A stretch of 64,000 nucleotides of DNA from an uncultured Anaerolineae bacterium (GCA_964510205.1 CAZEBW010000004.1:3638-67637), one strand, 5' to 3'; positions 6,230 through 43,583 are shown, numbered from the stretch's first letter. Notes: generated from the letters alone by a model not told the origin. Numbers and translations are program-made.

Positions 6230-6385
6230 CGTTCCTCCTTCTTCCCTCAGTGGCAGATGCAAATACCATACCACATTGTCCCCAAAAGTCAAATGGGTCA
6301 TTTTTCGCCTGGCAAAAACGCTCAGCCATTGGCCATCTCTCCAACGTGTATTTCAATTTGGGGGCAAGACCGAGAGACAGCGTCA

Positions 6386-7742: not shown

Positions 7743-8288
7743 ATGCAGTTGATCATCCAGGGTAAGAACATTGACGTGACCGATCGCTTGGAGGAGTACA
7801 TTGAGAAGAAAGTGGGCAAGCTGGACCGCTATCTGCCCACCATAAGCGAGGCGCGGGTAGAGCTGGCTGTTGAGGACACCAAGAGCGCTAAGGATCGCCA
7901 GGTAGCGCAGTTGACCGTGCGGAGCAAGGGCACATTTTTGCGGGCCGAAGAGAGAACTGCTGATATGTTCTCCTCGATTGACGTTGTTACGGACAAGATG
8001 TACCGCCAGATCGTTCGCTACAAGGGCAAACGCTATGGCCGAGGTCGCGGGCCAGGTGAGATGCCGCCAGTGGAGGACTTCGCATTTGAAGAGGAAGAAG
8101 AATCGTCTCGCATCGTCAGAACCAAGCGTTTCCAGTTGGCTCCCATGGATGCAGAAGAGGCCATCGAGCAAATGGAGCTTCTGGGCCACGACTTCTTCCT
8201 GTTCTTCAATGTTTACAACAATGCCATAAACGTCGTCTATCGGCGTAAGGATGGCAACTACGGGCTGCTTGAGCCGGAGCTGGCGTAG
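7743..8288 (+). CDS. hpf: Ribosome hibernation promoting factor, long form
   Basis: 181 aa; N-terminal MQLIIQGKNIDVTDRLEEYIEKKVGKL and a C-terminal dimerisation extension. Confidence 0.85.
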   Translation: MQLIIQGKNIDVTDRLEEYIEKKVGKLDRYLPTISEARVELAVEDTKSAKDRQVAQLTVRSKGTFLRAEERTADMFSSIDVVTDKMYRQIVRYKGKRYGRGRGPGEMPPVEDFAFEEEEESSRIVRTKRFQLAPMDAEEAIEQMELLGHDFFLFFNVYNNAINVVYRRKDGNYGLLEPELA

Positions 8289-11400: not shown

Positions 11401-11430
11401 TTGACAAGATTAGAACATGTGTGCTATAAT
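11401..11430 (+). promoter_or_regulatory. Near-consensus sigma70 promoter with extended -10 (TTGACA-18-TGcTATAAT)
   Basis: ttgacaagattagaacatgtgtgctataat read directly; ~55 nt upstream of the small ORF at 11486 with RBS agaggaggga. Confidence 0.6.
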
Positions 11431-11840: not shown

Positions 11841-13340
11841 TCATGGAAGCGGTGGCAGTAGTATCCTATTGATGGTTATGCCCCACTGGTCACTTCTTCG
11901 TTCAAGCCCTTCCATTAGTTGCTGGCATGCTGTGGCCTTGTTCGGCGGATCATGTACATCCTGTTGCCTGTATCCACATAACGCCTCATTCAGGAGCACG
12001 GCCATTTCCTGCACGATTTCTTTGTCCCAAATAGTCTTCATGTCGGCTTCGGTCAGTTTTTTCTTCTTGGTCTTCTTGTGGTTATTCTCACCAGATTCTC
12101 TAAAGAAGTGAGGTGCATGAACCGCTTTTTCCTTATTGACCTGGTAGTAAACTACTGGGGCAAGCTGCAAGACCCCATCTGCTAGTGCGACTTTCTGTTT
12201 GGGGCAACGGCATCTCAGCTCCATGGTCGGGATTACAGCTTGAATTTGGCTGTACAAGGGAAGCTGAAGAATACTTTGACCTTCTTCCAGCACCCTGATT
12301 TCGCGACTGTCTCCGATCACAGCAATCCTGTCGGGTGGGACGGTGAAGGTGAACGCCCTGTATCCAACGAGCACCAGAAGGACAAGCAAGAGTGGCAAGG
12401 CCGTACCCGCGGCAGTCAAGACAACGATGTGCAGTGAACTGCGCACGGAAAGCAGTATGCTCGCCAGCAGCATCAGTAGTACAATGACCACAAAGCCTGC
12501 CAACGCGCTGACAAAGGCGAGCACAGGGCTGGACAGTATTAGGTTGATGGCATCGCGAGCGTATGTGAGCAATGTCTCGAGTTGAATAGCAAGCGATGGT
12601 GGAGATTGCTCCGCCGCTCCGTCCTTCTCCTGCTCTGACGGCCTCATGCCTTGCGGACTGGCGTCTCCAGGTGGAAGGGATTCTTCGTCAATGTCCTCTG
12701 AGTTCATGGCTAGTCGTTCCGTCGTTTGCTCAGGCATACTCTCTTCACCCTCCTCTTGTTTTTGCTTCGCCTCTTGGCCTGACGGCTCCGTTTGTACGGG
12801 ACCAGCTCTTCCACGTCGAAGCGGTCCTCCGCCGGTATCTCCTGAATCCATGGCTACTTGTTGGTCTCGCAGGATCTTCCGGTATCGTGACTCGACTGTG
12901 CGCCTTAGGCGGCGGTCCATGTCCTGCAGCAGTTCCAGGCTGCGTGAACAGGCTTGACTTGCCTTGAGCCATTTGCCTTGGGCCTCGCACACCGTGGCCA
13001 ATCCAAAGAGGGCTACTGCTTGACTATGTTTGTCACTCAGAAAGAAGCGAGTGCTCTCTTGATACTTGTTGGCTGCCTCATCCAAGTGTTCCTGAGCGTG
13101 AAAGATAGCTGCGAGGTGAATAAGGGCTACCCCTTGAGCATATGAGTCATCCAACATGTCCAATTCGAGAGATCCTCTTGCTGATCTAATGCTTTGCTCA
13201 GCTATCGATTGGGCTGCTTTGTACCGGCCAGCTCGTCGCAGTTTGTCGGCCTCCTTGTTGAGCACGGTACCGCGATTAGTTCGTTCTCTTAGTTGGCGTA
13301 TGATCTGGTTGGCTTGTCGGTGGTAAGGATCGGATGTCAT
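11841..13340 (-). CDS. TPR-like / acidic linker / transmembrane / SPFH-like domain protein
   Basis: Likely start MTSDPYHRQ (rc ATG at 13338-13340). TPR-like helices, an E/D/Q-rich linker, two hydrophobic helices, then IAVIGDSREIRVLEEGQSILQLPLYSQIQAVIPTMELR...VVYYQVN resembling the start of an SPFH/band-7 domain. Confidence 0.5.
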   Translation of the reverse strand: MTSDPYHRQANQIIRQLRERTNRGTVLNKEADKLRRAGRYKAAQSIAEQSIRSARGSLELDMLDDSYAQGVALIHLAAIFHAQEHLDEAANKYQESTRFFLSDKHSQAVALFGLATVCEAQGKWLKASQACSRSLELLQDMDRRLRRTVESRYRKILRDQQVAMDSGDTGGGPLRRGRAGPVQTEPSGQEAKQKQEEGEESMPEQTTERLAMNSEDIDEESLPPGDASPQGMRPSEQEKDGAAEQSPPSLAIQLETLLTYARDAINLILSSPVLAFVSALAGFVVIVLLMLLASILLSVRSSLHIVVLTAAGTALPLLLVLLVLVGYRAFTFTVPPDRIAVIGDSREIRVLEEGQSILQLPLYSQIQAVIPTMELRCRCPKQKVALADGVLQLAPVVYYQVNKEKAVHAPHFFRESGENNHKKTKKKKLTEADMKTIWDKEIVQEMAVLLNEALCGYRQQDVHDPPNKATACQQLMEGLERRSDQWGITINRILLPPLP

Positions 13341-13419
13341 TGAAGTCCCCCCATAGAAGGAAAGCCCACCGGGATGCAGGAGAGTTGGGCCGGATAAACT
13401 AAGGTGTTCTGCGATATCG

Positions 13420-14727
13420 CTATGGGCTGCCAGGCGGCAATGCAATCGCTGATCTTATGGATTGCAGAGTGGCCATCACGTCGGAAGGCAGAAGGATCTT
13501 GGTCGCTGGATCGGAGGCCATTTTCTCCAGAGCTTCAATGAAACGCAAGGCTATGAATTGTGGAATCGGGATGTTCTTAGTCTCCATCTGACGGAAGCCT
13601 TCGGTGATGGCTATGATCATTCTAGTTTGAGCTTGTGCTCTGGCAACCTCAATCAGGTTATATACTTCAGCCTGTGCCTCGCCTTCAGTGATGAGGACTT
13701 GCTTGCGACTCTCCGCCATGCGCGCTTCCCAGTCTACTTGCCATTTCTTTTGCATTCCTTCCCTAATTTCCGGAGGCACCTCAATATTCAGCATCTGAAA
13801 GCTTATGATAGTGCCTCCCCAGCCTTCGGCTATCTTTCGCAGGGAATCTCGGACACGCTGCTTGATGTCGCTTTGAGGGAACGTGTTGGGATCCAGTGGG
13901 TCAAAGATATCATCCAAGTAACGTTTGCCAATCTCGTCGCGAAGCAGATTCTTGGCTACTTCGATAGTGGCGATTTCCCAGTCATAGCTATCGTAGGTAG
14001 CTTTGAGGACCGCCTCTCTAGAGAATGGATAGGGCTTCTCTGGGTTCCACACCTTGGCTGGATCCTGCGCGATGCGGAATAGAACGCTATAGTGGATGGT
14101 CACCGGTATGCCATCTTTGGTTGAGGCATTATCTAGCGTTCCTCTCCTGAACCGTTTCCGTGTGACGATGACCTTCCTGATACTTTCAAAAGGCTTGGTG
14201 CGCACTGCACCGGGCCCCTCAATGCGAGTGAATTTCCCCATCCGCTCGAAGACAACGGCTTGCTCGTTGCGTATTACGATCAAATTGGCTACCTTGAAGC
14301 CGGCGAGTGCGCCTTTGGACTTCACCTCGTCCACTTGGCCATCTTCAACGATGATGTAGCTTCCCAGGAATAGCTCTCCGGTGACAAAAGAGAGTAAATA
14401 CCGAAAGCAGTCCCACTGATTGCCGCCCCGGCTGACCAGTATGAGTTGCGAGGCCAGAAACAGGAGACTGCCTGTTAAGAATAGATAGACAGCCAGCCCC
14501 AATACTGCCCCCGTCAGGCCTCTCGTGACGAAGGAGAAGGTCAGAAACACCCCACTTGCAGTGAAGAATATCGCCAGCGCCACGCCCTTGCTCTGGCCCA
14601 TCCTGACAAGACACCCAAGGGAGACCACAGCGAGCCATACTAGGCCCCATTTGGGCTCGTGAACTACAGAGACTAAAATCAGTAGTGGAAGCAGGGCTAC
14701 GGACAACACAAGCAAGATCTTCTTCAT
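13420..14727 (-). CDS. SPFH/band-7 (stomatin/HflKC-like) domain membrane protein
   Basis: N-terminal 4-5 TM helices, then NEQAVVFERMGKFTRIEGPGAVRTKPFESIRKVIVTR...TKDGIPVTIHYSVLFRI (SPFH core) and a coiled-coil tail; start MKKILLVL. Confidence 0.7.
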   Translation of the reverse strand: MKKILLVLSVALLPLLILVSVVHEPKWGLVWLAVVSLGCLVRMGQSKGVALAIFFTASGVFLTFSFVTRGLTGAVLGLAVYLFLTGSLLFLASQLILVSRGGNQWDCFRYLLSFVTGELFLGSYIIVEDGQVDEVKSKGALAGFKVANLIVIRNEQAVVFERMGKFTRIEGPGAVRTKPFESIRKVIVTRKRFRRGTLDNASTKDGIPVTIHYSVLFRIAQDPAKVWNPEKPYPFSREAVLKATYDSYDWEIATIEVAKNLLRDEIGKRYLDDIFDPLDPNTFPQSDIKQRVRDSLRKIAEGWGGTIISFQMLNIEVPPEIREGMQKKWQVDWEARMAESRKQVLITEGEAQAEVYNLIEVARAQAQTRMIIAITEGFRQMETKNIPIPQFIALRFIEALEKMASDPATKILLPSDVMATLQSIRSAIALPPGSP

Positions 14728-14903
14728 AGCACAAGCTCTCCTTGTTTCTGTCAGCACTCTTAAGGTACGTGAGACTGCCGTCCAGTGCGTTCAACACGAG
14801 CTTATCTGACGGCGCCACAGGTATCACCCAGTTTCCATAGATCGAGGCAAAACCAAAAGGCCGCGGCTCGATATCGAAAACGTTTTGCAATGAGGGTGCT
14901 CAC

Positions 14904-16418
14904 TCAGCTCTGGGCGATCAAAATGGGGGAAGCCCAAGTCAAGTCATCCTTATTACGCATTGCCAGCTCTCGCCGGGCATCCAGCAGTGCCAGTTCAGGG
15001 CTGCCGTGCTGGAGCATAGAACGATAGAACGCCAGTGCCATTTCCTTGGCGCTCACTGCCGGCACTGACCACCTGTAGCCCAAAACAGACGGCACCCCTG
15101 ATTGGATAATTCCATCAGCGATACCCAGGTAGTCATCGTCCAGCAAATCAACCGGGCTGCCGGTACGAGTGCCCTCGCAGCACGTCAGGTGAAACAAACG
15201 GGTGTCAGAATCTTCCAACAGCCATCTCAGCTCATTTCCGGTCATTGGCTTTATATTCCCTGACCGGTTGCTGTCTTCCCAGAAGAACAATCTGCTCTGT
15301 TCCGGAGACCCCTCGTGAAAGACTCCGTGACCAACATAATGCACGATGTGATGCTTACACCCACGGAGCATTTCTTGCACTGCACTGTATGTAGCTGCTT
15401 CGGTTCTGACATGAGTCAAATCCAACCAGTTCAGTGGCGACAGCAAATCCACCAACTCTTCTCCGATTTTGTCAATCAGATCAATGCGTGGCTCAGTGTT
15501 GGACACGAGCAGTAGAACACGCAGGTTCTCGCCTGAACTGGCGAGACGTCGTATGAGTTCAGCAGAGATGGGTTCACGCCTCGTCACTACGCCTCGAATT
15601 TGGCGGACCATTGGATGGAGCAGTGTAAGGTAATCACCAGCCTCATCGGAAAAGATGAACTCCAGTGGCAATCCTGCCAGATCTCGGGTGGATTCAAACA
15701 CGAGGTGCAAGTATTGGTTCATTTGCGTCCTACCGAGTGCTCGGTGATACCCGTTGAGTACCGCAGAGTGCTGTTCGAACAGCAGGCGGTATAGCTCCCG
15801 TCCCACGTCTTTGATCAGAAAGCGGCGGTCTGCTGTGCTCATCATGCGTTCGCTTCCCCAGCGTGCAAAACGTGGAGCGTCGAGGCTTAGTGGATTGACA
15901 GAGGTGTATGTGAAGCGGATGTTGCCACGGCCCCGCACAAGAAGTCGCTGCCCTGGCTCTAGCGAGATTGTAATTTCGCACTCTTGGCTCGGCTCAAAGA
16001 CCGGCAATTGCCATTTCAATGACCTACTGATCACGCTATCCATCACTTTAACCACATCTTCTATCATGGTCTTTGGGAGGTACTCGGCTACAAGTCGCCG
16101 TCCAGTTGCATCAGGTTCCAGGGCGCGCCTCATCGTGTCAGGGGTACCATAGCCGGTGATAATGACAATCGGGAGCCCAGGGAATCGTCGTTTAAGCTCA
16201 GCAGCTAGATCAAGGCCTTCTAGGTTGCCTTCATCTGTCTCGTCCAAGCGCATGTCAAGTAGGGCTGCGTCGAAATGCTCTCGGTCAGACAAATCCAGGG
16301 CTCGCGCAACACTGGCAGCCGTTTTGGTTGCGTAGCCCTCGTCAATCAAGAGTTGTGAAAGGGTCACTCGCCAGTCAAACAAATCATCTACGATAAGCAC
16401 CTGGATTTGTTTAGTCAT
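14904..16418 (-). CDS. Response-regulator receiver fused to CHAT (caspase-like) protease domain
   Basis: REC: ILIVDDL...FDAALLDMRL...ITGYG...YLPKT. CHAT: IVHYVGHGVFH (catalytic His) and LFHLTCCEGT (catalytic Cys), C-terminus ALLDARRELAMRN...WASPILIAQS. Confidence 0.75.
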   Translation of the reverse strand: MTKQIQVLIVDDLFDWRVTLSQLLIDEGYATKTAASVARALDLSDREHFDAALLDMRLDETDEGNLEGLDLAAELKRRFPGLPIVIITGYGTPDTMRRALEPDATGRRLVAEYLPKTMIEDVVKVMDSVISRSLKWQLPVFEPSQECEITISLEPGQRLLVRGRGNIRFTYTSVNPLSLDAPRFARWGSERMMSTADRRFLIKDVGRELYRLLFEQHSAVLNGYHRALGRTQMNQYLHLVFESTRDLAGLPLEFIFSDEAGDYLTLLHPMVRQIRGVVTRREPISAELIRRLASSGENLRVLLLVSNTEPRIDLIDKIGEELVDLLSPLNWLDLTHVRTEAATYSAVQEMLRGCKHHIVHYVGHGVFHEGSPEQSRLFFWEDSNRSGNIKPMTGNELRWLLEDSDTRLFHLTCCEGTRTGSPVDLLDDDYLGIADGIIQSGVPSVLGYRWSVPAVSAKEMALAFYRSMLQHGSPELALLDARRELAMRNKDDLTWASPILIAQS

Positions 16419-17205
16419 GGCTGCTATCCGTGGGAGTTTCTATGGCTTTGATCACAGGGAGTGTGATCGCTATCGTCGTGCCGTGGCCAATCTCAGTATG
16501 TTTTACACTAATCTCTCCACCAAACCTGGCAAGTATCAAATGCGCTAACCAGAGACCCAGGCCCTTGTTGGTCCCGGTTGACGGAATCGGACCCTGAAAA
16601 AGATCGGCAAGAATGAGTTGCGGTATCCCTGTTCCGTTATCTGCAATCTCTACTCGCACTGTGTTGTCCGCGTCCACGTACTGGGTATGGATGTCAATAT
16701 GTCCGGGTTTTTTGCTTGTTGCTTGGATCGAGTTTTCGAGCACCGCCCGGAAAACCTCCGCGAGCAAGTGGCTATCAGCACGCACGGGAGGGACATCCTC
16801 TGGAAAATCAAAACTCACCCGTACTGTCTTGGAAGTGTGGCTAGCAGAAAGTTCTTCCCAGACCTCATACAGCAGTGAGTTTACGTCTAAGGGCATAGGC
16901 GGCTCACTCGGCTCTCTGAGTACTTCGACGGCGGCACTTAATTCGCTCAAACTGCTAATGGTCTTTTCTATGGCTGTGACCAGGTCGAGGGCGGCTCTAT
17001 CGTTGCTATTGATGTATTCCTTAAGACGACCGACTCGAACTCCCAGCAACCCAGTCAAGTTGGAGAGCTGGTGCAGTAATGCAGCAGAAGCCATCCCCAG
17101 TGCAATGAGGCTGGCCTCCTCCCCGTGGCTACGGTTAGGATGTGCACTTTCTTGCGGTAGGGGTGGATTTGGTCTCTGACTTTCCCGGTCATTTGGTGGA
17201 CTCAT
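16411..17205 (-). CDS. Cytoplasmic sensor histidine kinase (DHp + HATPase_c, no TM or sensor domain)
   Basis: H-box AALLHQLSNLTGLL; N, G1 (ADNGTGIP) and G2 (GLGLWLAHLI) boxes. Confidence 0.75.
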   Translation of the reverse strand: MSPPNDRESQRPNPPLPQESAHPNRSHGEEASLIALGMASAALLHQLSNLTGLLGVRVGRLKEYINSNDRAALDLVTAIEKTISSLSELSAAVEVLREPSEPPMPLDVNSLLYEVWEELSASHTSKTVRVSFDFPEDVPPVRADSHLLAEVFRAVLENSIQATSKKPGHIDIHTQYVDADNTVRVEIADNGTGIPQLILADLFQGPIPSTGTNKGLGLWLAHLILARFGGEISVKHTEIGHGTTIAITLPVIKAIETPTDSSHD

Positions 17206-17241
17206 TTGTCGGATTCTCCCAAGCGCGGCGCGTCCTTCAGT

Positions 17242-18768
17242 TCACTCCTGATGAATCAAGATAGGCGACAACCAGGTTGGATCGTTTCTGTCCATAGCGG
17301 CCAGCTCGCGCCTTGCGCTCCAGAGGGCGAACTCCGGCCCCCCTTGCTCCAATAAGGACTGGTAGAAAGCCAACGCCAGCCGACGGGCTCCATCATCTGA
17401 CACAGGCCAGCGGAAGCCCAGCACCGAGGGTGCGCCGGCCTGCGCGACAGCGTCGGCCAGCCCAAGGAAATCGTCATCCAGCAAAGCAGCCTGAGCGCCG
17501 CTGGCTGTGCCATAGCAACTGCTCATGTACACCAGACGTGCTTCCGAGCGCCTGAGTAGCATCTTTAGTTCGGTTGCTTTCATCGGCATGACGCCACCTT
17601 GCTTATTCTCCTGGGCCCAGAAGTATAGGCTGCTATCTTCAGGGGACTCGGTCCTGTACGAGCCATGTCCTGCGTAATGTACAATGTCGTAACTGGGCTT
17701 CCCCAACTCTGATCTTACGCGCTCATACGTGGCGCGCTCCGTGGGGATGAGTTTAACACTGACAGGGATGCAGTCCTGGCTCTTTAAGTACTCGTACAGT
17801 GCCTGCGCCTCGGCATCTACGCCGTCTATTGGAGGCTGTGTGTTAGAGGCGATAATCAGAATTCGCAATTCCTGAGTCAGTGCCAGCAGCGAAGGGGAAA
17901 TCAGGCTGCGTTTCGGGGTAGCATTGTATAGAAAACGGGCGAGGGGGTGTTGAAGTACCAGGTACTCTGGAGGATCATCCGAGCGCATAAATTCCAATGG
18001 TAGTCTGAGAAATTCCCTGGGCGTCTCAAAAAGCATTGAAAACGACTGGCTCTTGGCGCGCGCTTCCACATAGGCTTTTTCGGCTTCAGGGTGCTCAGTA
18101 AATATGTCACGCCACAGACTGTGGCCGATCTCCCCAACCTGGAAACGCAAATTGCTCACGTCTCTTCTGGCGAGTTCTGTCCGCCTTGCATAGCGTTCGA
18201 GTGCCACACGCAACACTTTCCACGAGCGCAAGGAACAGACGTGGCGACCGCGCGCCCTGATCACCAGAGGCTGTCCGGCTGTGAGTGATAGAGATAGCTG
18301 GGTAGCATCACCTGTCTTCTCAAACCTCGGCTTGGTTGCCTCCTGGCGTGCTTTCGCGATAGTCTCCAGAACTTGTTCAGCCACATCCGGGGTTTTTTCG
18401 ATGAAGTCAACTACTCCGAGATATCGAATCGCGCGTACAATTTGCTTGGTTCTCGGGTAGCGTGTGAGCAGGATGACGCGAACCCGCGGATTGAGGGCGC
18501 GGAATGCCATCGCCAGGCTCAATCCGCTTTCGTCCTCTTCATCATCTCCGTGCAGGCGCACGTCAATGAGAGCAAAGTCGAACGGTTCTTGCGTGACAGC
18601 AACCAGGGCTTGTTCCTCGTTGGCCGCTGACCGGACGGTGTATCCTTCATCGGAAAGTCGCCCTGCTAACGTGGTACAGAAATCGGCATGGTCATCTACT
18701 ATCAGAATCTTGCACATTGCTACCCTCTTCATCAACTGTCTGATGGGACGCTCCGGGTCATCCAGCAT
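17242..18768 (-). CDS. Response-regulator receiver fused to CHAT protease domain (second copy)
   Basis: REC: KILIVDDHADF...FDFALIDVRL...LTRYP...IEKT. CHAT His IVHYAGHGSY and Cys LVYMSSCYGT; start may be the internal M (MCKILIV). Confidence 0.75.
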   Translation of the reverse strand: MLDDPERPIRQLMKRVAMCKILIVDDHADFCTTLAGRLSDEGYTVRSAANEEQALVAVTQEPFDFALIDVRLHGDDEEDESGLSLAMAFRALNPRVRVILLTRYPRTKQIVRAIRYLGVVDFIEKTPDVAEQVLETIAKARQEATKPRFEKTGDATQLSLSLTAGQPLVIRARGRHVCSLRSWKVLRVALERYARRTELARRDVSNLRFQVGEIGHSLWRDIFTEHPEAEKAYVEARAKSQSFSMLFETPREFLRLPLEFMRSDDPPEYLVLQHPLARFLYNATPKRSLISPSLLALTQELRILIIASNTQPPIDGVDAEAQALYEYLKSQDCIPVSVKLIPTERATYERVRSELGKPSYDIVHYAGHGSYRTESPEDSSLYFWAQENKQGGVMPMKATELKMLLRRSEARLVYMSSCYGTASGAQAALLDDDFLGLADAVAQAGAPSVLGFRWPVSDDGARRLALAFYQSLLEQGGPEFALWSARRELAAMDRNDPTWLSPILIHQE

Positions 18769-19639
18769 TCCCCCAATTTGCCTGTATGTAACTCGTTGTC
18801 GCCTTTACGTCCAGGCTGCGAGTCGAATTGCCAATACGCACCCAGAACTTGTGAACATCGCCCGTCGCCAGGAACACCGGCTTTGGGCTTTTTTCAATCG
18901 CAACGATGCAGACGTGTTTACCATCTATGGGTTCGAAGCGTGTGCGAATGTATGGCATATATTCTAGACCCACATAGGTCTTGACAATATCCGTCAATGC
19001 CAATTGAAACCCATCGGTATTTGGCTTGCGCAGAGTTTGTAAGTCTTTTTCAATACCTAGCACCGTGCCATCGTCAGCGACGCCAATGAGTAGGGTCCCA
19101 CCCTTGCTGTTCAACATTCCTGTGATTGCCACGGCGATCGTTTCCTGCAGGCTCTTGTTAGTTGTGTTTTTCTTGAAATCCCAGCGGATACTGGACTTGA
19201 ATTCCACGTGGTCATTTTCACCTTGGGCAATCAAATTGAGTACCGAGCGTTCAAATGCGCGGTTCACGTACTCCGGCAGTTGGTCTACTTCAGATTTTTC
19301 CAGGAAGCCAAACGCTGGTGATACTCCCTCGCGATCAGGTTGAAGGACCTCCCTCACCATCCTGACGTTTGCATAGCCGGTCAAGATAATGATGGCCACA
19401 TGGGGGTCCTTCTCTCTGATCTCGCGCATAAGCAAGATGCCATCTTGGTTGTCCTCGTCGGCCTCGTCCAAGCGCACGTCCAGAACTGCGACGTGAAAAC
19501 GCTCGGCGTCCAACATTTGCAGAGCCTCAACTCTGCTGGATGCCGAGCGTACTTCATAGCCTTCGTCTGACAAAAGGCCCGACAATGTTGCGCACACGTC
19601 GGGCAGGTCATCTACTACGAGAACGCGACCTTTGTACAT
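18758..19639 (-). CDS. Response-regulator receiver fused to an AlbA_2 (Schlafen-like) domain
   Basis: Likely start MYKGRVLVVDD. REC with VAVLDVRL; C-terminal ENDHVEFKSSIRWDFKKN...TLLIGVADDGTVLGIEKD matches the AlbA_2/Schlafen N-domain signature. Confidence 0.65.
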   Translation of the reverse strand: MYKGRVLVVDDLPDVCATLSGLLSDEGYEVRSASSRVEALQMLDAERFHVAVLDVRLDEADEDNQDGILLMREIREKDPHVAIIILTGYANVRMVREVLQPDREGVSPAFGFLEKSEVDQLPEYVNRAFERSVLNLIAQGENDHVEFKSSIRWDFKKNTTNKSLQETIAVAITGMLNSKGGTLLIGVADDGTVLGIEKDLQTLRKPNTDGFQLALTDIVKTYVGLEYMPYIRTRFEPIDGKHVCIVAIEKSPKPVFLATGDVHKFWVRIGNSTRSLDVKATTSYIQANWGNAG

Positions 19640-19665
19640 GGCACTCCTGCCGATTGCATCTTGTC

Positions 19666-20067
19666 TTATCGTGCCAACACTTCCTGTACTATCTTGACCA
19701 ACTCTTCGGTCTGGGTTTTCGGGATATAGTTCGCTACAAGTCTCCGGCCCTGCGTATCTGGCTCCATTGCCCGTCTCATGGTATCCGGCGTGCCGTAGCC
19801 TGTGATCATTACGACTTCGGTAGTGGGCCAATGTTGTTTGATCTCATCCGCCAGGTCCAGCCCCTCGGTGTTACTCTCGTCCGTCTCGTCCAGGCGCATG
19901 TCCAGTACTGCCAGATCAAAATGGCTGGTTTTGAGCAACTCCAATGCCGCAGGCGAAGACTCGGCAACCTGGACATCGTATCCCGCGTCCTCCAACAAGC
20001 CACCGAGCGTCGTGCGCCAATCTAGCAGGTCATCTACCACCAGAATCTTCTGCCGTTTGTTTGTCAT
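19666..20067 (-). CDS. Single-domain CheY-like response regulator (paralog of the REC of the 14904 REC-CHAT)
   Basis: ILVVDDL...FDLAVLDMRLDETDESNTEGLDLADEIK...ITGYGTPDTMRRAMEPD...YIPKT, almost identical to the REC of 14904-16418. Confidence 0.8.
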   Translation of the reverse strand: MTNKRQKILVVDDLLDWRTTLGGLLEDAGYDVQVAESSPAALELLKTSHFDLAVLDMRLDETDESNTEGLDLADEIKQHWPTTEVVMITGYGTPDTMRRAMEPDTQGRRLVANYIPKTQTEELVKIVQEVLAR

Positions 20068-20459
20068 TCTCTTACTCCTTCGTGCTTACCATGGCGATTA
20101 CGCGGCACCTGTGGAAACAGAATGATCTCCCTGACCTGCTCGAAGAGATCCTCGCTTCCGAAAGACTTGGCGAAGTAGCGCATGGCTCCCAACCGGTAGG
20201 CCGCAAGCGCCTCTTGGGTCGTGGGTTGTACTGTTGTTACGACCACCCGCTTATCAGAGTATTTCTCAGCGATGACTGCAAGCACGTCCAGGCGGCGGGA
20301 GCTTGCGATGACCAGGTCGAACTGATCCGCTTCGAGTTCAGCGAGTGCTGCCTTGGTGTCAGGCGCAACGACGATTTCAAACTTGTTGAGATCGCTCTTG
20401 GCGAACTCAATCCAGCGAGGTTCGTCGTCAATGATCAGAATGCGAGTTTTCATGATCAC
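20064..20459 (-). CDS. Atypical receiver-like protein (pseudo-receiver; phospho-acceptor Asp apparently replaced)
   Basis: ILIIDDEP present, but the expected D in FDLVI-A-SSRRL is Ala. Confidence 0.55.
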   Translation of the reverse strand: MIMKTRILIIDDEPRWIEFAKSDLNKFEIVVAPDTKAALAELEADQFDLVIASSRRLDVLAVIAEKYSDKRVVVTTVQPTTQEALAAYRLGAMRYFAKSFGSEDLFEQVREIILFPQVPRNRHGKHEGVRE

Positions 20460-23400
20460 ACCTCCTTTCCCGTCCCCGGCGCTGGGATCTGAACCAGCAT
20501 TGTTGTTCCAGTGGGATCGGTCTCTTCTATTATAGCATCACCGCCAATACTTTGCAACATCAGTCGGCTGAGCCAGAGACCCAGACCTGCCCCTCCGCCT
20601 GGCTCCTTGGATGGGACTGGTTTGACGAAGAGACGTTGCTGGACTTGCAGTGGGATGCCCGGTCCTGTATCCTGAACCCGCACACAGATATTACTGTCGG
20701 TCAGACGACTGGTAACTGCTAACTGGCCACCCGCCTTCATTGCTCGGTAGGCATTGTCAACCAAGTTGTAGAAGACCTCAGCGATCTGACCGATCGGGGC
20801 CCGAATCTGCGGCAGCGATTGATCCAGGTCTAGGGTATGTTCGATCGTTGATCGAATGGGATCCGTTCGCCACTGTTCTCTCACTTTACCCACCACGTCA
20901 CTCAGCACTGCGTTAATGTCCACATCCTGATCCTCGACCTCTCGCAGCGGTTCTTGAATGCGCGCGATGATATCCGACGTATAGCGGGCGTTACGTTCGA
21001 TGATGTCAAGGATCTCTGCAATCGTATCATTCGACATATCAACGCGCTTCCGCAGGCGCGTCACGTTGGGAACGATGATGTTGAAGGTATTATTGACACG
21101 ATGTTGTAAAGCTGCGATGGCCGTGCCCAGTGTGGCCAAGCGCTTGGTCGCGATGACTTCACTGCGTGCCTCCTCATATAACCGGGCATTCTCAAGGGCA
21201 ATGGCTGCCTGGTTGGCCATAGAGGAGATGACCTGCAAGTCCTGTTCATCGTAGGCCTGCTCTCTTTCCCAGTCGTAGATAGCGATCACGCCCAGAACCC
21301 TATTCTCCAGAACCATCGGGACACCTATCCAAGATTTGGCGACACGCCCGATGAACTCTTGATGTCCGGGCTGTCCATACCACGCTTTAGATTCCACTTG
21401 GGTGCGATGCAGGATTGGCTTCTTGGTAAGGATGACTTCTTCGGTCTTACCCCGCTTCTCCATATCAGCCTTGCGGGGATCGTAATGCACCTGCTCACCG
21501 TGCTCCGTTGCCAGACCGAAGCGGATCATCCCTGTTTCCTCGTCATACAGCGCGATGTACATGTCCTGTGCGCCGGTCAACTCCCTGGCCTGCTCGTAGA
21601 TTAGCTCCAGAATCTCATCTTGCTTCAGACGAATACCGGAGGTTAGTGCCTGTCCTACCTCATTCAGTGCCGCCAACGCCTGAACGCGCCGTGCGAGCTG
21701 CTGGTTGATCTCGTAGTAAAGCGTTGCATTATCCAACGCGATTGCCGCTTGGTTGGCCACAGAGGAGATGACCTGCAAGTCCTGTTCATCGTAGGCCTGC
21801 TCTCTTTCCCAGTCATAAATGGCGATCATACCCAGTACCTTCTCACCTGTGACCATGGGAACGCCCAAGTAAGAAGGCTGAACACGCCCGATGAACTCTT
21901 GATGTCCGGGCTGTCCATACCACGCTTTAGATTCCACTTGGGTGCGATGCAGGATTGGCTTCTTGGTAAGGATGACTTCTTCGGTCTTACCCCGCTTCTC
22001 CATATCAGCCTTGCGGGGATCGTAATGCACCTGCTCACCGTGCTCCGTTGCCAGACCGAAGCGGATCATCCCTGTTTCCTCGTCATACAGCGCGATGTAC
22101 ATGTCCTGTGCGCCGGTCAACTCCCTGGCCTGCTCGTAGATTAGCTCCAGAATCTCATCTTGCTTCAGACGAATACCGGAGGTTAGTGTCTGTCCCACCT
22201 CGTTCACTGCCTGTATAGCTTTATACAAGCGTGCGCTTTTAATAGCAACCGCTGCTGCCCCAGCTAGGGCCTCAACCAGACGCATGTGATCGTCTGTAAA
22301 GGCTCCGATTTGGGTACTCTCCAGATTGAGCGTTCCAATCACTCTGTCACGGTGTATCAACGGTGTTGTGAGTTCGGATTGTACTTCCTCAAACCACTCC
22401 TTGTAGTACGGATCGCTTTTGATATCGTTGCAAAGATATGTCTTTCTACTCAAGGCAACGTGTCCGTTGATGCTCGTCTCGTCTAGGGGTAGTCTCGTGA
22501 GGGTTCGCGTCGGCGTCTCATCCCTCTTGTTTCTCGCCCCAAATCGCAGTTCACGTGTCCGCTCGTCCAGCAACCAAATACTCGTATACTTGGCTGGCGT
22601 CAGCCTGGCCGCTTGCTCTGCGATTTGCTCCAGCAGATCCTCTAGGGAAGCAGTGCCAATGAGCGCGTATAGGTTCTGAAGAGCTCTGATATCATCAATT
22701 CGCTCTTGTAGGCTAGTCTGAGCCTCTTCGTACACACGGGCGTTATAGATAGCTGTCGCCGCTTGATTAGCGAACAGCTCGATAGCCCCCCGTTGCTCAG
22801 GAGTGAAGGGTTGTCGGCTCCGGTAATTGACGAACATAGCGCCCACGGTTTCGCCTGCTGCTTCGAGGGGGACGGCGGCTGACGATAGGATTCCCTCGCG
22901 CACTACAAAGCGCTTTTCCGGGCGCTCAGGGCGCTCTACGGTGAATGGGCCGGTGAGCAGGGTATCCGTCTGAGTATCGGGAGAGTAGAGGGGCTCTCCA
23001 CCCTCGACCACTTTCACAACGACATCATCCTTGAATATTTCGTCCTTGACAACTGTGGGGTCTCGGCGCTCTCCTTCCAAGATAGGTGGCATGATGTAAC
23101 GGTCATCCGCCTCAACGTACTGGTACACATCCACGAGATCGGCACCCAATACACTCCTGGCACTTCGCGCCACCTGACGCAATACCTCTCTCAACCCCTG
23201 TGCCGAAAGCTCAGCCGAGAGTATTCGTCCCCCAATCTGGTGCAGCCTCTGCAAGACTGCAGCCCGGCTGGTTGCCTGCTCAAGAAGTTGAGCATTGTGT
23301 ACAGCCACGGCGGACTGGCTGGCCACCGCCTCTAACAGCATCTGATCGTGCTCGTCAAAGCCGCTCAGCCCGTCCATATCAGCAGAGATCACCCCAATAA

Positions 23401-24193
23401 CCTCGTCTTGCAAGATTATGGGCGCCAGCACCATTGAGCGCTCGACGATGTCTGACGACAAACCGGGGACAAACTGAGGGTGCTTGACCGCATCCGGGAC
23501 GAGTTCTGATTGCTTGGTTTGGGCTACCCACCCGGCCAACCCGACCCCTTGGGCGAACTGCTGTCGTGCGATGCCTGCTGACGAGGCAGCTTCCAACGCT
23601 AGGTCACCGCTCTTATCCACTAGAAAAACGCTGATGTGCTTGCAATCCAGCACTCTTTCTGCGGCTTGCATAATGCGTGCGAAAAGATCGGCACGGCGCA
23701 ATTCGGAACTGATCAAGAGGCTCACTGCGTTCAGGGTCGCCAGATCCTGAATTCGACGCTGCGTGGCAGCCACTTGAGCGGAAGAACTCTCAATCAGCGC
23801 CTTCTCGAAATCAGTGAAATCCCTTGCCTCACGGGTATAAACGTCAAGCACACCAACGATTTTCCTTTTTACTCGTAGTGGTACCACCATAGCCGACTTC
23901 AGTCCCATAGCGGTGGTTTCTGGTTTGTACTTCCAGCGAGCATCGGTGTCAACGTCTGTCACGACGATTGCCTGTTCAGTCGCAAAAACGTCAGACGCGA
24001 CACTGGGCTCATCCAGGCGCAGAAACGCATCGCGAACGTATTCCTCTGACAACTCTGTCGCTGCAGCGATCCGGAGGGTTTCCCCCGTTTCATCGGCAAG
24101 CCAGATACAGGCCGGCAGTCCCAGAGTCTGGCTTATGGTCTCCACCACGGGTTGAAAGAACTGCTTTTTATCAAGTTCTTGAGAGGGGATCAT
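20456..24193 (-). CDS. Large cytoplasmic multi-GAF-domain sensor histidine kinase (1245 aa)
   Basis: At least 5-6 GAF-like modules, coiled coil, H-box ALQHRVNN, HATPase_c (DTGPGIP...GLGLWLSR); no TM helices. Confidence 0.8.
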   Translation of the reverse strand: MIPSQELDKKQFFQPVVETISQTLGLPACIWLADETGETLRIAAATELSEEYVRDAFLRLDEPSVASDVFATEQAIVVTDVDTDARWKYKPETTAMGLKSAMVVPLRVKRKIVGVLDVYTREARDFTDFEKALIESSSAQVAATQRRIQDLATLNAVSLLISSELRRADLFARIMQAAERVLDCKHISVFLVDKSGDLALEAASSAGIARQQFAQGVGLAGWVAQTKQSELVPDAVKHPQFVPGLSSDIVERSMVLAPIILQDEVIGVISADMDGLSGFDEHDQMLLEAVASQSAVAVHNAQLLEQATSRAAVLQRLHQIGGRILSAELSAQGLREVLRQVARSARSVLGADLVDVYQYVEADDRYIMPPILEGERRDPTVVKDEIFKDDVVVKVVEGGEPLYSPDTQTDTLLTGPFTVERPERPEKRFVVREGILSSAAVPLEAAGETVGAMFVNYRSRQPFTPEQRGAIELFANQAATAIYNARVYEEAQTSLQERIDDIRALQNLYALIGTASLEDLLEQIAEQAARLTPAKYTSIWLLDERTRELRFGARNKRDETPTRTLTRLPLDETSINGHVALSRKTYLCNDIKSDPYYKEWFEEVQSELTTPLIHRDRVIGTLNLESTQIGAFTDDHMRLVEALAGAAAVAIKSARLYKAIQAVNEVGQTLTSGIRLKQDEILELIYEQARELTGAQDMYIALYDEETGMIRFGLATEHGEQVHYDPRKADMEKRGKTEEVILTKKPILHRTQVESKAWYGQPGHQEFIGRVQPSYLGVPMVTGEKVLGMIAIYDWEREQAYDEQDLQVISSVANQAAIALDNATLYYEINQQLARRVQALAALNEVGQALTSGIRLKQDEILELIYEQARELTGAQDMYIALYDEETGMIRFGLATEHGEQVHYDPRKADMEKRGKTEEVILTKKPILHRTQVESKAWYGQPGHQEFIGRVAKSWIGVPMVLENRVLGVIAIYDWEREQAYDEQDLQVISSMANQAAIALENARLYEEARSEVIATKRLATLGTAIAALQHRVNNTFNIIVPNVTRLRKRVDMSNDTIAEILDIIERNARYTSDIIARIQEPLREVEDQDVDINAVLSDVVGKVREQWRTDPIRSTIEHTLDLDQSLPQIRAPIGQIAEVFYNLVDNAYRAMKAGGQLAVTSRLTDSNICVRVQDTGPGIPLQVQQRLFVKPVPSKEPGGGAGLGLWLSRLMLQSIGGDAIIEETDPTGTTMLVQIPAPGTGKEV
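21209..22290. repeat. 540-bp tandem duplication (2 copies) of one GAF module inside the histidine kinase gene, with a ~320-nt 100% identical core
   Basis: 21343-21662 equals 21883-22202 at nucleotide level (the + strand ORFs 21359-21604 and 21749-22144 translate identically); flanks ~75-85% identical. Confidence 0.75.
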
Positions 24194-24228
24194 GGGTCAC
24201 TCTCCTTGTCATCTGTAAATGGGCAGAT

Positions 24229-25569
24229 TCAATTATGAGGTTGGTGTCTCCAGACTTCCAATGACTCCCTATATCCCGCTTCCGAAAATGCTAACCCCTT
24301 CTCCCTCAGCATCATAGCGGTGAGAAGGTGAGGTAATCCTTTCTTCTTTTCCAGGAAGACGATTTGTGGGCCGGAAAGCGTACGCCTACCATTCTTCTTC
24401 AGGAATTGCATGAGCTGGCGACGTCCGCGCTCAACGGTCTTTAAGAAACGCTGTGCCTCGGTTGAGAAATAGGATTCCAGTTTCTCCTCGTCCTCCGGCG
24501 CCGCTCGCGAAGCGTTGCGCACTGTTTGGGAAATGCAATCTATCAGTGTGGGTAGAAACCCCCTGGTTTCGATGCCCAGAACAATCTGCCGCGTTACGAC
24601 ACCTCGAATCAATAGCTTAATGAGACGCTCTCGCCCATTCTTACCTGGAGGTGGAGCGCCATCTGCGACTAGGAAATACAGCGCCTTTAGATAATCTGCC
24701 ATCACATGTTCGCTGGCAGTGATCAACGATTCTGGCAGGTCAGGTGCGCGAACGAGACTATGTATGGTGTCTGTGATCGGTTGGTAACTACTTATCTCAA
24801 ACACTGATTGAGCATCTTGCAGGATCATTGCCACGCGCTCAGTGCCAATCACCGTTTCGAAGAAAGGCTCCGTCATCGGTTGGAGCCTTTGGGTCTTAGT
24901 GTCTATCTCGGTGCTGACAAAGAGTGAATTGGCGAATTCAACGAACCGACCGCACTGGCAAGGCGGCCGACAATCGGGGCCGCAGCCAAAGACCGCGCCT
25001 CGATCAAAGAACATCTCAGTATTGGGCCCGCATTTACGATAGCGAACTACCCCTTCAATGCCATTTCCTTGTTTCCAGAGGTTGTCCTTGACTCCCAGAC
25101 CTATGATCTGCTCTTCAGGCATCCCGATACTCCGCCAAGCTTGATGAGCCTCTACATCCTCGTCAAACGCATGCTTTGAAATCTTACCCCCGGCGAAATA
25201 AGTGACCCATATGTTGTCTGGCTTGATTCTCAGGTTTGAGGTCATGAACTCCCACATTTGCTGGATAACAGTTGCCTTGCTGAGAGCATTAAAGGAAAAA
25301 GCGGCGGGCATTTCAAACAAGCTTAGGTGCACATTGTCGGTTCCAACGGTGTCAATGTCGAAATATCTGAAGCACTTTTGCACCAGTGCATACTTATGCC
25401 CGGCACGCTTGCCCATCTGATCAAGAGCCTTTTCAAATTGCGGTAATCCAGCACTCATTACGAACGACATAGGAATAGAGGGATGCAACAGCGAGGCACT
25501 AGGCAGAACGGAGAATCCTTTGCCCTGGTAATAATCGAGGAACGTTTGGCTAATGGCTGGGGATCGCAT
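24229..25569 (-). CDS. Alanyl-tRNA synthetase catalytic-fragment paralog (AlaRS N-terminal ~441-aa-like, divergent)
   Basis: SQTFLDYYQGKGFSVLPSASLL...QFEK...VQKCFRYFDIDTVG...HLSLFEMPAAFSF...GKNGRERLIKLLIRG is collinear with the AlaRS N-terminus (FLDFF..GH..VPS..LLFTNAGM..QKCIR..D.VG..HHTFFEML.NFSFGDYFK..GNEGRGYVLRRIIRR). No editing or C-Ala domains; several canonical motif residues are changed. Confidence 0.6.
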   Translation of the reverse strand: MRSPAISQTFLDYYQGKGFSVLPSASLLHPSIPMSFVMSAGLPQFEKALDQMGKRAGHKYALVQKCFRYFDIDTVGTDNVHLSLFEMPAAFSFNALSKATVIQQMWEFMTSNLRIKPDNIWVTYFAGGKISKHAFDEDVEAHQAWRSIGMPEEQIIGLGVKDNLWKQGNGIEGVVRYRKCGPNTEMFFDRGAVFGCGPDCRPPCQCGRFVEFANSLFVSTEIDTKTQRLQPMTEPFFETVIGTERVAMILQDAQSVFEISSYQPITDTIHSLVRAPDLPESLITASEHVMADYLKALYFLVADGAPPPGKNGRERLIKLLIRGVVTRQIVLGIETRGFLPTLIDCISQTVRNASRAAPEDEEKLESYFSTEAQRFLKTVERGRRQLMQFLKKNGRRTLSGPQIVFLEKKKGLPHLLTAMMLREKGLAFSEAGYRESLEVWRHQPHN

Positions 25570-25620
25570 TTTCTAGCTCCAAATCACGCGATACACCGAA
25601 CGTTATTGTAGATGCATGAA

Positions 25621-25649
25621 TATTATATCAAACCTGTCCTTAAATGTCA
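25621..25649 (-). promoter_or_regulatory. Perfect sigma70 consensus promoter (TTGACA-17-TATAAT on the minus strand) driving the AlaRS-like / HK / REC / CHAT operon
   Basis: Reverse complement reads ttgacatttaaggacaggtttgatataat; ~45-nt leader with ggag RBS before the ATG at 25569. Confidence 0.55.
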
Positions 25650-25704
25650 AGGCATCCAAAATACTGGATAGACATACACCGTATCGTTCAAGGAGTTGGG
25701 GTAA

Positions 25705-38814: not shown

Positions 38815-38888
38815 GCGCCGCGACGTCATGTGATGAAGCCGCCGCGACGTCATATGATGAAGCGGCCTCGACGTCATATGATTAAGCG
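38815..38888. repeat. 24-nt tandem repeat x3 (GCCGCGACGTCATRTGATGAAGCS) with internal GACGTC / CATATG palindromes
   Basis: Read directly between the remnant ORF and the GT-C gene. Confidence 0.8.
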
Positions 38889-40990: not shown

Positions 40991-41035
40991 TGACTTAGGA
41001 CCTCGGACTTAGGACCTAGGACTATTCTCACTTTG
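40921..41035. repeat. Inverted heptamer arrays (GTCCYAC x4 / GGACYTAG x4) spanning a GT-C stop/start junction
   Basis: gtcctacgtcccacgtcctacgtctcacgtccgaagtcattgacttaggacctcggacttaggacctaggac. Confidence 0.85.
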
Positions 41036-43332: not shown

Positions 43333-43583
43333 AGTCCATAGTCCTAGGTCCGATGGAAGGCGGCCTCGGACCTAGCGCGATTTCACAAAACAGGCATTGA
43401 TTCTTGAGACAGCGTCCGCCAGGGGCTCCGCTGCGCTCAAGCCCCTGGCTCAGTCTACAAAGCCCCCGCTGGGGCTGGGGTCGTCAGGCCGCAGGCCTTT
43501 GTACCTGAGCCCGGCGGCTTCAGCCCCGGGCGGAGTGGCGGCGGAGTCAACCTTTGTTGTGTGATGCAGTGCTAGGCTTGGAT

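Follow-up and report, generated by a model that had tools for sequence, protein, structure and literature searches.

Organization of the locus

A stretch of 64,000 nucleotides (nt) from an uncultured Anaerolineae bacterium (GCA_964510205.1, CAZEBW010000004.1:3638-67637), referred to here as the window and numbered from its first letter, contains two genes encoding receiver-CHAT proteins, in which a response regulator receiver is fused to a caspase-like CHAT domain, and between them a gene for a histidine kinase. All three are located on the minus strand: receiver-CHAT protease A (14904-16418; 504 amino acids, aa), kinase B (16411-17205; 264 aa) and receiver-CHAT protease C (17242-18717; 491 aa from the likely start, with an open reading frame (ORF) that extends to 18768 and would give 508 aa). 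They form the distal part of one low-GC operon of about 13.8 kb (11841-25650, minus strand), which encodes successively: a paralog of alanyl-tRNA synthetase (AlaRS), a kinase with six GAF domains, a pseudo-receiver, a receiver, a receiver-Schlafen/AlbA_2 protein, receiver-CHAT C, kinase B, receiver-CHAT A and two membrane SPFH/SPFH-like proteins. A preliminary description of the region had treated the three genes as a unit of their own; the genes are real, but they make up only the last third of the larger operon, so that this interpretation is partly supported and too narrow.

The cassette is considered a single operon because a consensus promoter precedes the first gene, the genes are closely spaced or overlapping, and no terminator-like site was found between them. 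The promoter-like site of the sigma-70 type (25622-25650, minus strand) consists of TTGACA and TATAAT separated by 17 nt, with a TG extension, and lies 53 nt upstream of the first gene; it is recognized by its 12/12 consensus match alone. A second 12/12 sigma-70 consensus promoter with a TG extension is located at the far end (11401-11430, plus strand) and points away, the two sites bracketing the cassette.

Overlaps implying translational coupling had been proposed for two gene junctions. The one between kinase B and protease A (16411/16418) is a true overlap of 8 nt (ATGACTAA), whereas the one at 18758/18768 is probably an artefact of ORF calling. The ATG at 18768, which gives the longest ORF of protein C, abuts a G-run and lacks a spaced Shine-Dalgarno sequence. 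The ATG at 18717 is preceded at 5 nt by AAGAGGG and yields the N-terminus MCKILIVDD, common to the homologues of about 490 aa; on both grounds 18717 is the likely start, and a gap of 40 nt is therefore left after the stop codon of the upstream gene.

Receiver-CHAT proteases A and C

Both receiver-CHAT reading frames of the preliminary description (14904-16418 and 17242-18768) were recovered exactly, and each contains the Pfam domains Response_reg and CHAT with scores far exceeding the gathering scores. The E-values were 1.9e-15 (Response_reg) and 4.4e-27 (CHAT; 95.7 bits against a cut-off of 24) for protein A, and 8e-16 and 1.5e-33 (117 bits against 24), respectively, for protein C. The two proteins are full-length paralogs with 37% identity. 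Their receivers belong to PF00072 by profile match and possess all the residues that had been reported: (i) an acidic pair, DD10-11 in A and DD25-26 in C; (ii) the phospho-acceptor aspartate, D55 in A (LLDMRL; 16254-16256) and D69 in C (LIDVRL; 18562-18564); (iii) T88 in A and T102 in C at the Thr/Ser position; (iv) the lysine, K116 in A and K125 in C; in addition, (v) an aromatic switch residue stands three positions ahead of this lysine in both. The residues of protein C are numbered throughout in the 508-aa form. An unusual acidic insertion after the acceptor (D[VM]RL[DH]ExDExN) is common to the receivers of the cassette other than the pseudo-receiver.

The catalytic dyad is formed by H364 (15327-15329) and C414 (15177-15179) in A, and by H368 (17665-17667) and C418 (17515-17517) in C. 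In 36 of 36 aligned family members H368, C418 and D69 are invariant, and the histidine and cysteine are equally invariant in 25 of 25 CHAT regions covering four phyla, where they are placed at the ends of the expected strands. The profile built from these CHAT regions (25 loci) matched the SAVED-CHAT structure 8tl0 with E=2e-8, the invariant histidine of the GHG motif and the cysteine being aligned with chain positions 355 and 402. The dead mutant of SAVED-CHAT is H375A/C422A (Steens et al., bioRxiv 10.1101/2023.06.23.546230). As the spacing of 47 residues is identical and the offset is a constant 20, the receiver-CHAT dyad matches the dyad mutated in SAVED-CHAT; the dyad is thus intact, as had been claimed, with neither residue lost. 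The CHAT match required the CHAT-only family profile, while a Protein Data Bank (PDB) search with the full-length sequence of protein C returned receivers only. The caspase-like fold put forward earlier was borne out as well, since the receiver-CHAT proteins show a caspase-hemoglobinase fold resembling solved CHAT and separase structures; PorX is also among their structural matches. By profile, fold and dyad, A and C are CHAT proteases (PF12770; caspase/separase superfamily), for which peptide cleavage is predicted. These receiver and protease assignments are far more secure than the biological role of the cassette.

Related loci, designated by L-numbers, were retrieved via the protease from species-representative genomes and from a contig collection. 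The A-type and C-type CHAT domains are old paralogs. In the window, the receiver of A (16020-16418) is 58% identical to the stand-alone receiver (19666-20067), whereas the equivalent receiver in L001 (3069-3470) and L014 (12367-12770) is about 62% identical to the Schlafen-fused receiver. The closest relative of the A-type receiver thus differs between the window and these two loci, which indicates that receiver modules are swapped within the cassette. The use of receiver relatedness for assigning kinase partners was rejected, as the grouping of the A receiver varies by genome.

Kinase B

The only Pfam match of kinase B is HATPase_c (E=5.5e-18). The protein consists of a variable N-terminal tail of about 35 aa, a DHp domain with His45 (17071-17073) and a complete catalytic domain. 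The H-box reads LLHQLSN, its His45 being conserved in four kinase B homologues and in five GAF-kinase cores, and the N, G1 and G2 boxes are complete (VLENS, DNGTGIP and GLGLWL). The DHp domain was assigned by alignment, as none of the Pfam HisKA models gave a match. The highest Kyte-Doolittle (KD) mean over 19 residues is only 1.29, hence a membrane segment is absent; no sensor or transmembrane input domain was found by Pfam or hydropathy, about 35 variable residues being all that precedes the DHp domain. This agrees with the earlier description of a kinase devoid of both elements.

Kinase B and the catalytic core of the GAF kinase encoded upstream share 30% identity. Its homologues (252-266 aa) occur in L001, L008 and L014, and the combination of kinase B with a second protease is limited to these loci and the window. 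Kinase B and protease A look like a minimal kinase/receiver-CHAT pair from which the sensor has been lost.

The AlaRS catalytic-core paralog

The first gene of the operon (24229-25569, minus strand) encodes a 446-aa paralog of the AlaRS catalytic core, with the aminoacylation and tRNA-recognition domains only and without the editing or C-Ala domain. The tRNA-synt_2c profile matched with E=5e-70 (profile positions 2-426 of 552), and the alaS model gave 224 bits, under its cut-off of 457 (profile positions 2-417 of 847). The protein aligns across the whole bacterial AlaRS catalytic fragment 1-441 and keeps the class II residues for ATP as well as the motif-3 arginine; R68, the FEM motif, W165, N214 and GxER are all retained. 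The alanine pocket of AlaRS includes Asp235 and Gly237 (E. coli numbering), and in the paralog these are replaced by Glu and Val (ETVIG for VDTGMG), both invariant or nearly so in 31 paralogs. The protein therefore departs from a canonical alanyl-tRNA synthetase in length and domain content, in equivalog score and in the Asp235/Gly237 pocket. Two further features are characteristic: four residues are missing after Arg68, and a CxxxCxxxCxC (Cys4) cluster, probably a metal site, is nearly invariant.

Proteins of this kind constitute a distinct family of about 445 aa that comprises over 120 clusters; the gene that comes next nearly always encodes a GAF histidine kinase. Through the paralog, 80 metagenome loci were retrieved, and the 37 with at least 2.5 kb of downstream sequence were judged. 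A GAF/kinase gene lies directly downstream in 34 of the 37, and in the other three a kinase core or receiver is found further on. In six loci (L117, L122, L123, L129, L130 and L137) the gene order differs: the paralog does not precede a single GAF kinase but has a large GAF protein (1056-1637 aa) on one side and a separate kinase of 600-930 aa on the other. In L145 (8585-11362) and L146 (3138-5897) a histidine kinase and a receiver come after a more distant AlaRS homologue (about 920 aa; 39-40% identity to the paralog), so the synthetase-kinase linkage may extend beyond the truncated family.

AcmF is a truncated AlaRS-like enzyme of ascamycin biosynthesis that moves alanine from Ala-tRNA to a nucleoside sulfamate (PMC12945691). 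Compared by features and not by homology, AcmF and the paralog both possess only the aminoacylation and tRNA-recognition domains and share the same Asp-to-Glu change at the residue holding the alanine amino group (D232E in AcmF, D235 to E in the paralog). In contrast to AcmF, which has lost most ATP-binding residues and has N219Q, the paralog keeps R68, FEM, N214 and the motif-3 Arg; it also adds the Cys4 cluster and G237V, and is located in a kinase operon instead of a biosynthetic cluster.

Other genes of the cassette

The second gene (20456-24193, minus strand) encodes a soluble histidine kinase of 1245 aa with six GAF domains (GAF_2, 9e-109 in six stretches; HATPase_c, 3e-17), the H-box LQHRVNN and no membrane segment. 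The gene contains a tandem duplication of 540 bp (21186-22181), which doubles one GAF domain of about 180 aa. Over 300 nt the two copies are 100% identical (21342-21641 and 21882-22181), and the adjoining 149 nt are 79% identical; the duplication is either a very recent event or an assembly artefact.

Two small stand-alone proteins follow, both encoded on the minus strand. The pseudo-receiver (20064-20459; 131 aa) retains the DD pair, Thr and Lys, and has Ala where the phospho-acceptor would stand (VIASS). Among 23 distinct homologues belonging to related cassettes, this position is occupied by Ala (19), Val (3) or Thr (1), and in no case by Asp. The stand-alone receiver (133 aa), whose coordinates are given above, has an intact acceptor Asp and is a candidate phosphate sink or relay.

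The receiver-Schlafen/AlbA_2 protein (18758-19639, minus strand; 293 aa, start MYKG) matched Response_reg with 1.2e-18 and SLFN_AlbA_2 with 2.8e-18, and the 293-aa form is also the called gene in a public collection. All 14 homologues compared retain the motifs GExxxxEFK and GVxDxG, which can be aligned with their counterparts in rat SLFN13; we take their residues to be a Glu-Glu-Asp RNase triad as in SLFN13. Direct sequence matches of this protein in the PDB were not significant (E=0.064).

The last two genes (minus strand) encode a membrane-anchored SPFH/Band-7 protein (13420-14757; 445 aa; Band_7, 9e-18; membrane segment with KD 3.1), a candidate scaffold or substrate, and a 534-aa protein (11841-13445) with TPR repeats (TPR_12, 6e-10), an acidic linker, a membrane segment (KD 3.0) and a C-terminal part that appears SPFH-like on inspection, without a Pfam match. 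The two genes overlap by 26 nt. As no tblastn relatives of the TPR/SPFH-like protein were found in the other loci, only the 445-aa SPFH protein is supported as a conserved partner. The cassette has SPFH genes next to it not only in the window but also in L001, L002, L010, L015, L016, L073, L074, L077, L078 and L084-L089. A 181-aa ORF (14345-14890) was considered as a small downstream substrate and rejected, since it overlaps the SPFH gene in another frame, begins with TTG and has no family match.

Conservation and genomic context

A search of 5.8 billion proteins returned more than 120 clusters (at 90% identity) with the full-length receiver-CHAT architecture, mostly from metagenome bins of Chloroflexota/Anaerolineae, and the fusion is consequently not a chance arrangement. 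At E<=1e-30 the family had 215 representatives out of 1.84 billion, and about 70 of the best 150 were full-length receiver-CHAT proteins.

The order AlaRS-like protein, multi-GAF kinase, one or two small receivers, receiver-X and receiver-CHAT was observed in 15 distinct loci besides the window. The receiver-X slot is occupied alternately by a Schlafen/AlbA_2 protein (about 300 aa) or by a TCAD9/APH-type kinase (about 530 aa), and in some loci a small protein of the Trypco1 or Pepco type comes after the protease. At this place L002 and L010 encode a 221-aa polytopic membrane protein, for which no homologue was found in the window. Other effectors found behind the kinase are: receiver-EAD7-CHAT (L069, 17964-19688), receiver-EAD11 with EAD11-trypsin (L070, 15766-17555), a metallophosphatase with a ParA-like receiver protein (L071) and a TIR-receiver-CHAT fusion (P0007). 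In these EAD7, EAD11 and TIR relatives, the same phosphorelay is coupled to death-like adaptor domains and to TIR. In Desulfobacterota, Acidobacteriota and Bacteroidota there is a minimal unit lacking the AlaRS paralog, in which receiver-CHAT comes directly after the GAF kinase.

The GC content of the cassette is 53.2%, compared to 60.1% for the rest of the window. It is below that of the flanks in all 13 loci compared (the window, L002, L006, L010, L012, L014, L020, L021, L030, L035, L036, L069 and L070), the differences ranging from 1 to 9 points in the 12 others. The neighbouring genes differ from genome to genome; in the window they are a glycosyltransferase and other housekeeping genes. 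Overall, the cassette is a conserved, accessory and probably mobile cassette of Chloroflexota.

Outside the cassette, genes for RtcA (5117-6301) and a ribosome hibernation factor (7743-8288) lie within a few kb, with unrelated genes between. Both would fit a theme of RNA damage and dormancy; RtcA, being 5.5 kb off, was not counted as part of the system. No tRNA genes were found in the window. A tandem array of four consecutive paralogous membrane proteins (702, 781, 780 and 1103 aa) with glycosyltransferase domains of the PMT_2/DUF2142 type is present at 38882-49234, in a glycosylation/polyprenyl region.

Comparison with known systems

No description of receiver-CHAT proteins or of the linkage between AlaRS paralog and GAF kinase, and no characterized response regulator with a CHAT or caspase-like protease output, was found in the literature searched, the coverage of which was incomplete, so that an earlier description is possible. 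From its genes, the cassette is probably an undescribed relative of the two-component anti-phage systems, with enzymatic output and a predicted defensive role.

The closest validated analogue in logic is Detocs (DtcA/DtcB/DtcC), an operon of a kinase, a buffer receiver and a receiver-effector that defends against phages by abortive infection and has swappable effectors; DtcB is the proposed phosphate sink, and mutation of its Asp makes Detocs toxic (Rousset et al., bioRxiv 10.1101/2023.01.24.525353). The likeness is one of architecture only: a sensor kinase, a stand-alone receiver and a receiver-effector fusion in one operon, a swappable effector and an output that is enzymatic and not transcriptional. 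By sequence the cassette does not belong to Detocs, as PADLOC gave no match for the kinase and only weak matches at the receiver level (PDC-M60B, 2e-6), although the presence of Detocs models under that name in PADLOC 2.0.0 was not confirmed. There are further differences between the two. The sensor of the cassette consists of GAF domains after an AlaRS paralog, in place of the TPR repeats of DtcA; a pseudo-receiver and a second, sensorless kinase are added, and as many as three receiver-effectors (one Schlafen-like, two CHAT) can be present together; the effectors are proteases and a nuclease-like protein, in contrast to the PNP ATP nucleosidase of Detocs. Phage defence by Detocs has been validated, whereas the cassette is known here from its genes alone.

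In the SAVED-CHAT/PCaspase cascade of type III-B CRISPR-CBASS, ligand-induced oligomerisation turns on SAVED-CHAT, which then sets a series of proteases in motion (Steens et al., bioRxiv 10.1101/2023.06.23.546230; PDB 8tl0). In the cassette, the predicted switch is a phospho-receiver and not a cyclic-oligoadenylate-binding SAVED domain, and the signal would come from a histidine kinase instead of a cyclase. Pfam revealed no SAVED domain N-terminal to CHAT in A or C, where the receiver is located instead; the PADLOC match to SAVED_CHAT spans the CHAT part only, and both proteases of the cassette are CHAT paralogs. In Craspase (Cas7-11 with the TPR-CHAT protein Csx29, type III-E; PDB 7y83, 7y9x and 8eey), the protease has a TPR arm, which A and C lack, and activation through RNA-guided binding of a target is inapplicable to them; the ORFs scanned in the window included no cas-like gene, such as cas7-11, csx30 or csx31. 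Proteins A and C thus belong with Csx29, SAVED-CHAT and separase in fold and chemistry, without the defining partners of the former two (TPR/Cas7-11 and SAVED, respectively).

In the chemotaxis enzyme CheB, the unphosphorylated receiver masks the esterase active site and phosphorylation relieves the masking. CheB likewise has an N-terminal receiver fused to a hydrolase, but the output fold in the cassette is that of a caspase-like cysteine protease. The best PADLOC match of protease C is BovA of Borvo, a single-gene CHAT anti-phage system (E=3.8e-7, 27.5 bits); the similarity is domain-level only, confined to the CHAT region, and BovA has no receiver or kinase partner. The NTP-dependent conflict systems of multicellular bacteria described by Kaur et al. 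in 2020 and 2021 are built on STAND, vWA-MoxR or GTPase cores, and their receivers are described in these papers solely as effectors that act independently of histidine kinases (PMC7159879, PMC8195603). Relatives of the cassette share with them caspase-superfamily peptidases, TCAD9, Trypco1, EAD7, EAD11 and TIR. The core is different, being a histidine kinase with the AlaRS paralog, and no STAND, vWA-MoxR or GTPase core protein was found in the cassette of the window or of the related loci examined.

Proposed mechanism and alternatives

The most likely reading, to which we give an even chance of being correct, is that the cassette encodes a branched, Detocs-like phosphorelay, with phosphorylation-gated proteases and a nuclease as outputs and a role in biological conflict (abortive infection or dormancy). 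The AlaRS paralog and the soluble kinase with six GAF domains would form the sensor module, in which the kinase, acting with or informed by the AlaRS paralog, would autophosphorylate on the histidine of its H-box and pass the phosphate to the receivers. The stand-alone receiver may drain or relay phosphate in the manner of DtcB, while the pseudo-receiver, which is not phosphorylatable, would act without phosphate, possibly by serving a kinase as adaptor. Phosphorylation of D69 in C or D55 in A would cause the receiver to switch or dimerise, and the CHAT domain would be unmasked, much as the esterase of CheB is, or assembled into the active protease. Induced oligomerisation is what activates caspases, and dimer formation is common among phosphorylated receivers; the route by CHAT pairing is attractive because SAVED-CHAT likewise fires by ligand-induced oligomerisation. 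The active His/Cys dyad would then cut specific proteins, the candidates being, in the window, the membrane SPFH proteins that are co-transcribed and, in relatives, the small Trypco1/Pepco-type proteins. In parallel, the receiver-Schlafen protein, with its putative nuclease triad intact, would attack RNA. Kinase B and protease A may represent an optional second kinase-protease pair derived from the minimal kinase and receiver-CHAT unit of other phyla, kinase B serving as the own phosphodonor of the second protease; its input could be contact with another protein of the cassette or processing of the variable N-terminal tail.

The defence reading is suggested by signatures of conflict systems: the swapped effectors, the EAD, TIR, Trypco1/Pepco and TCAD9 partners, the low GC content and the differing flanks. 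Detocs, SAVED-CHAT and the minimal kinase and receiver-CHAT pair of other phyla serve as precedents. Several points weigh against it. The low GC content could reflect gene-family composition instead of transfer, and no phage, integrase or other mobile-element gene adjoins the cassette in the window, where the flanks are housekeeping genes. PADLOC placed no protein of the cassette in a known defence model and gave only weak domain-level matches (BovA, 3.8e-7; SAVED_CHAT, 5.5e-5; receiver-level matches to PDC-M60B/C). Every member of the family is known from sequence alone, the activation of the protease by dimerisation or unmasking is proposed by analogy, and the kinase-receiver pairing cannot be read from relatedness because the receiver of protease A groups differently among genomes. 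Moreover, cytoplasmic kinases with several GAF domains are frequently found in ordinary metabolic signalling.

An alternative that we regard as possible and on balance unlikely is a physiological regulator comparable to HetF, which acts in cyanobacterial differentiation. An internal metabolic state, which could be alanine or tRNA charging sensed via the AlaRS paralog or a small ligand sensed via the GAF domains, would trigger regulated proteolysis and RNA cleavage, by which the cell is reshaped or halted in starvation, under stress or in the course of filament development. This is consistent with the pairing of a cytoplasmic multi-GAF kinase with an AlaRS paralog in which the parts binding ATP and tRNA are preserved, with the wide distribution within one phylum whose members are often filamentous, and with the PADLOC result and the housekeeping neighbours in the window. 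HetF is also the best NCBIfam match outside the receivers (E=1e-4), and SPFH proteins classically pair with housekeeping membrane proteases, as in HflK/C-FtsH and stomatin-NfeD. A physiological role is harder to reconcile with the swapping of effectors at fixed positions and with EAD7/EAD11, the TIR fusion and Trypco1/Pepco/TCAD9, which are the vocabulary of conflict systems (PMC7159879). The GC content below that of the flanks in 13 of 13 loci, the differing chromosomal neighbourhoods and the patchy distribution across distant phyla also argue against it.

The narrower interpretation of the preliminary description, in which the three genes form a self-contained trio and kinase B is the dedicated phosphodonor of both receiver-CHAT proteins, its input coming from contact with a protein or from the GAF kinase through cross-talk, appears improbable. 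Kinase B is flanked by both protease genes and shares the 8-nt overlap with the start of the second, its catalytic core is complete, and the trio recurs in L001, L008 and L014. However, at least 12 distinct loci have a C-type receiver-CHAT gene immediately behind the GAF-kinase/receiver genes and no kinase B, and in L021, L030 and L078, likewise without kinase B, the A-type is the only CHAT protein; as a rule, therefore, neither protease depends on kinase B. Nor was a stand-alone trio found on any contig long enough, L014 carrying the whole cassette and L001 and L008 being short contigs. It is highly improbable that the receiver-CHAT proteins are phosphate sinks or scaffolds with a degenerate caspase-like domain, since, although some CHAT domains have non-proteolytic roles, invariance of His368/Cys418 in 36 of 36 members and 25 of 25 CHAT regions, in alignment with a validated dyad, is not expected of a dead enzyme.

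The phosphorelay with conflict role can be elaborated into a more specific proposal, which we consider doubtful: a hitherto unrecognized class of immune or programmed-dormancy system in multicellular Chloroflexota, in which the AlaRS paralog reads the input and the phosphorelay leads to a Schlafen-type tRNA/rRNA nuclease and to caspase-like proteases, with an initiator-to-executioner step in the genomes with two CHAT proteins. The AlaRS paralog might report the state of tRNA(Ala) or alanine, e.g. after phage attack on tRNA; alternatively, like AcmF, it might use aminoacyl-tRNA or ATP to make an aminoacyl-nucleotide messenger bound by the six GAF domains. Protease C or the GAF kinase would license kinase B, which would fire protease A, giving a phosphorylation-driven counterpart of caspase cascades.

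Significance

Two features of the cassette are of particular interest, a phospho-receiver as the putative switch of a protease of the caspase-like kind and a dedicated AlaRS paralog heading the pathway. The small size of the family and its near confinement to uncultured Chloroflexota may explain why it has been missed. CHAT caspase-like proteases are emerging as executioners in bacterial immunity, as seen in Craspase, SAVED-CHAT and caspase-like Thoeris, and to our knowledge every studied bacterial CHAT or caspase-like immune protease is switched by an RNA-guided complex or a nucleotide messenger. If the proposed mechanism is true, receiver-CHAT would bring in a new trigger of a caspase relative, namely aspartyl phosphorylation by a histidine kinase, and Detocs, the single validated defensive two-component system, would be extended to protease and nuclease outputs. 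The linkage of the AlaRS paralog to the GAF kinase, seen in 34 of 37 loci, provides a testable handle on a new non-translational role of an aminoacyl-tRNA-synthetase paralog and on what multi-GAF kinases sense.

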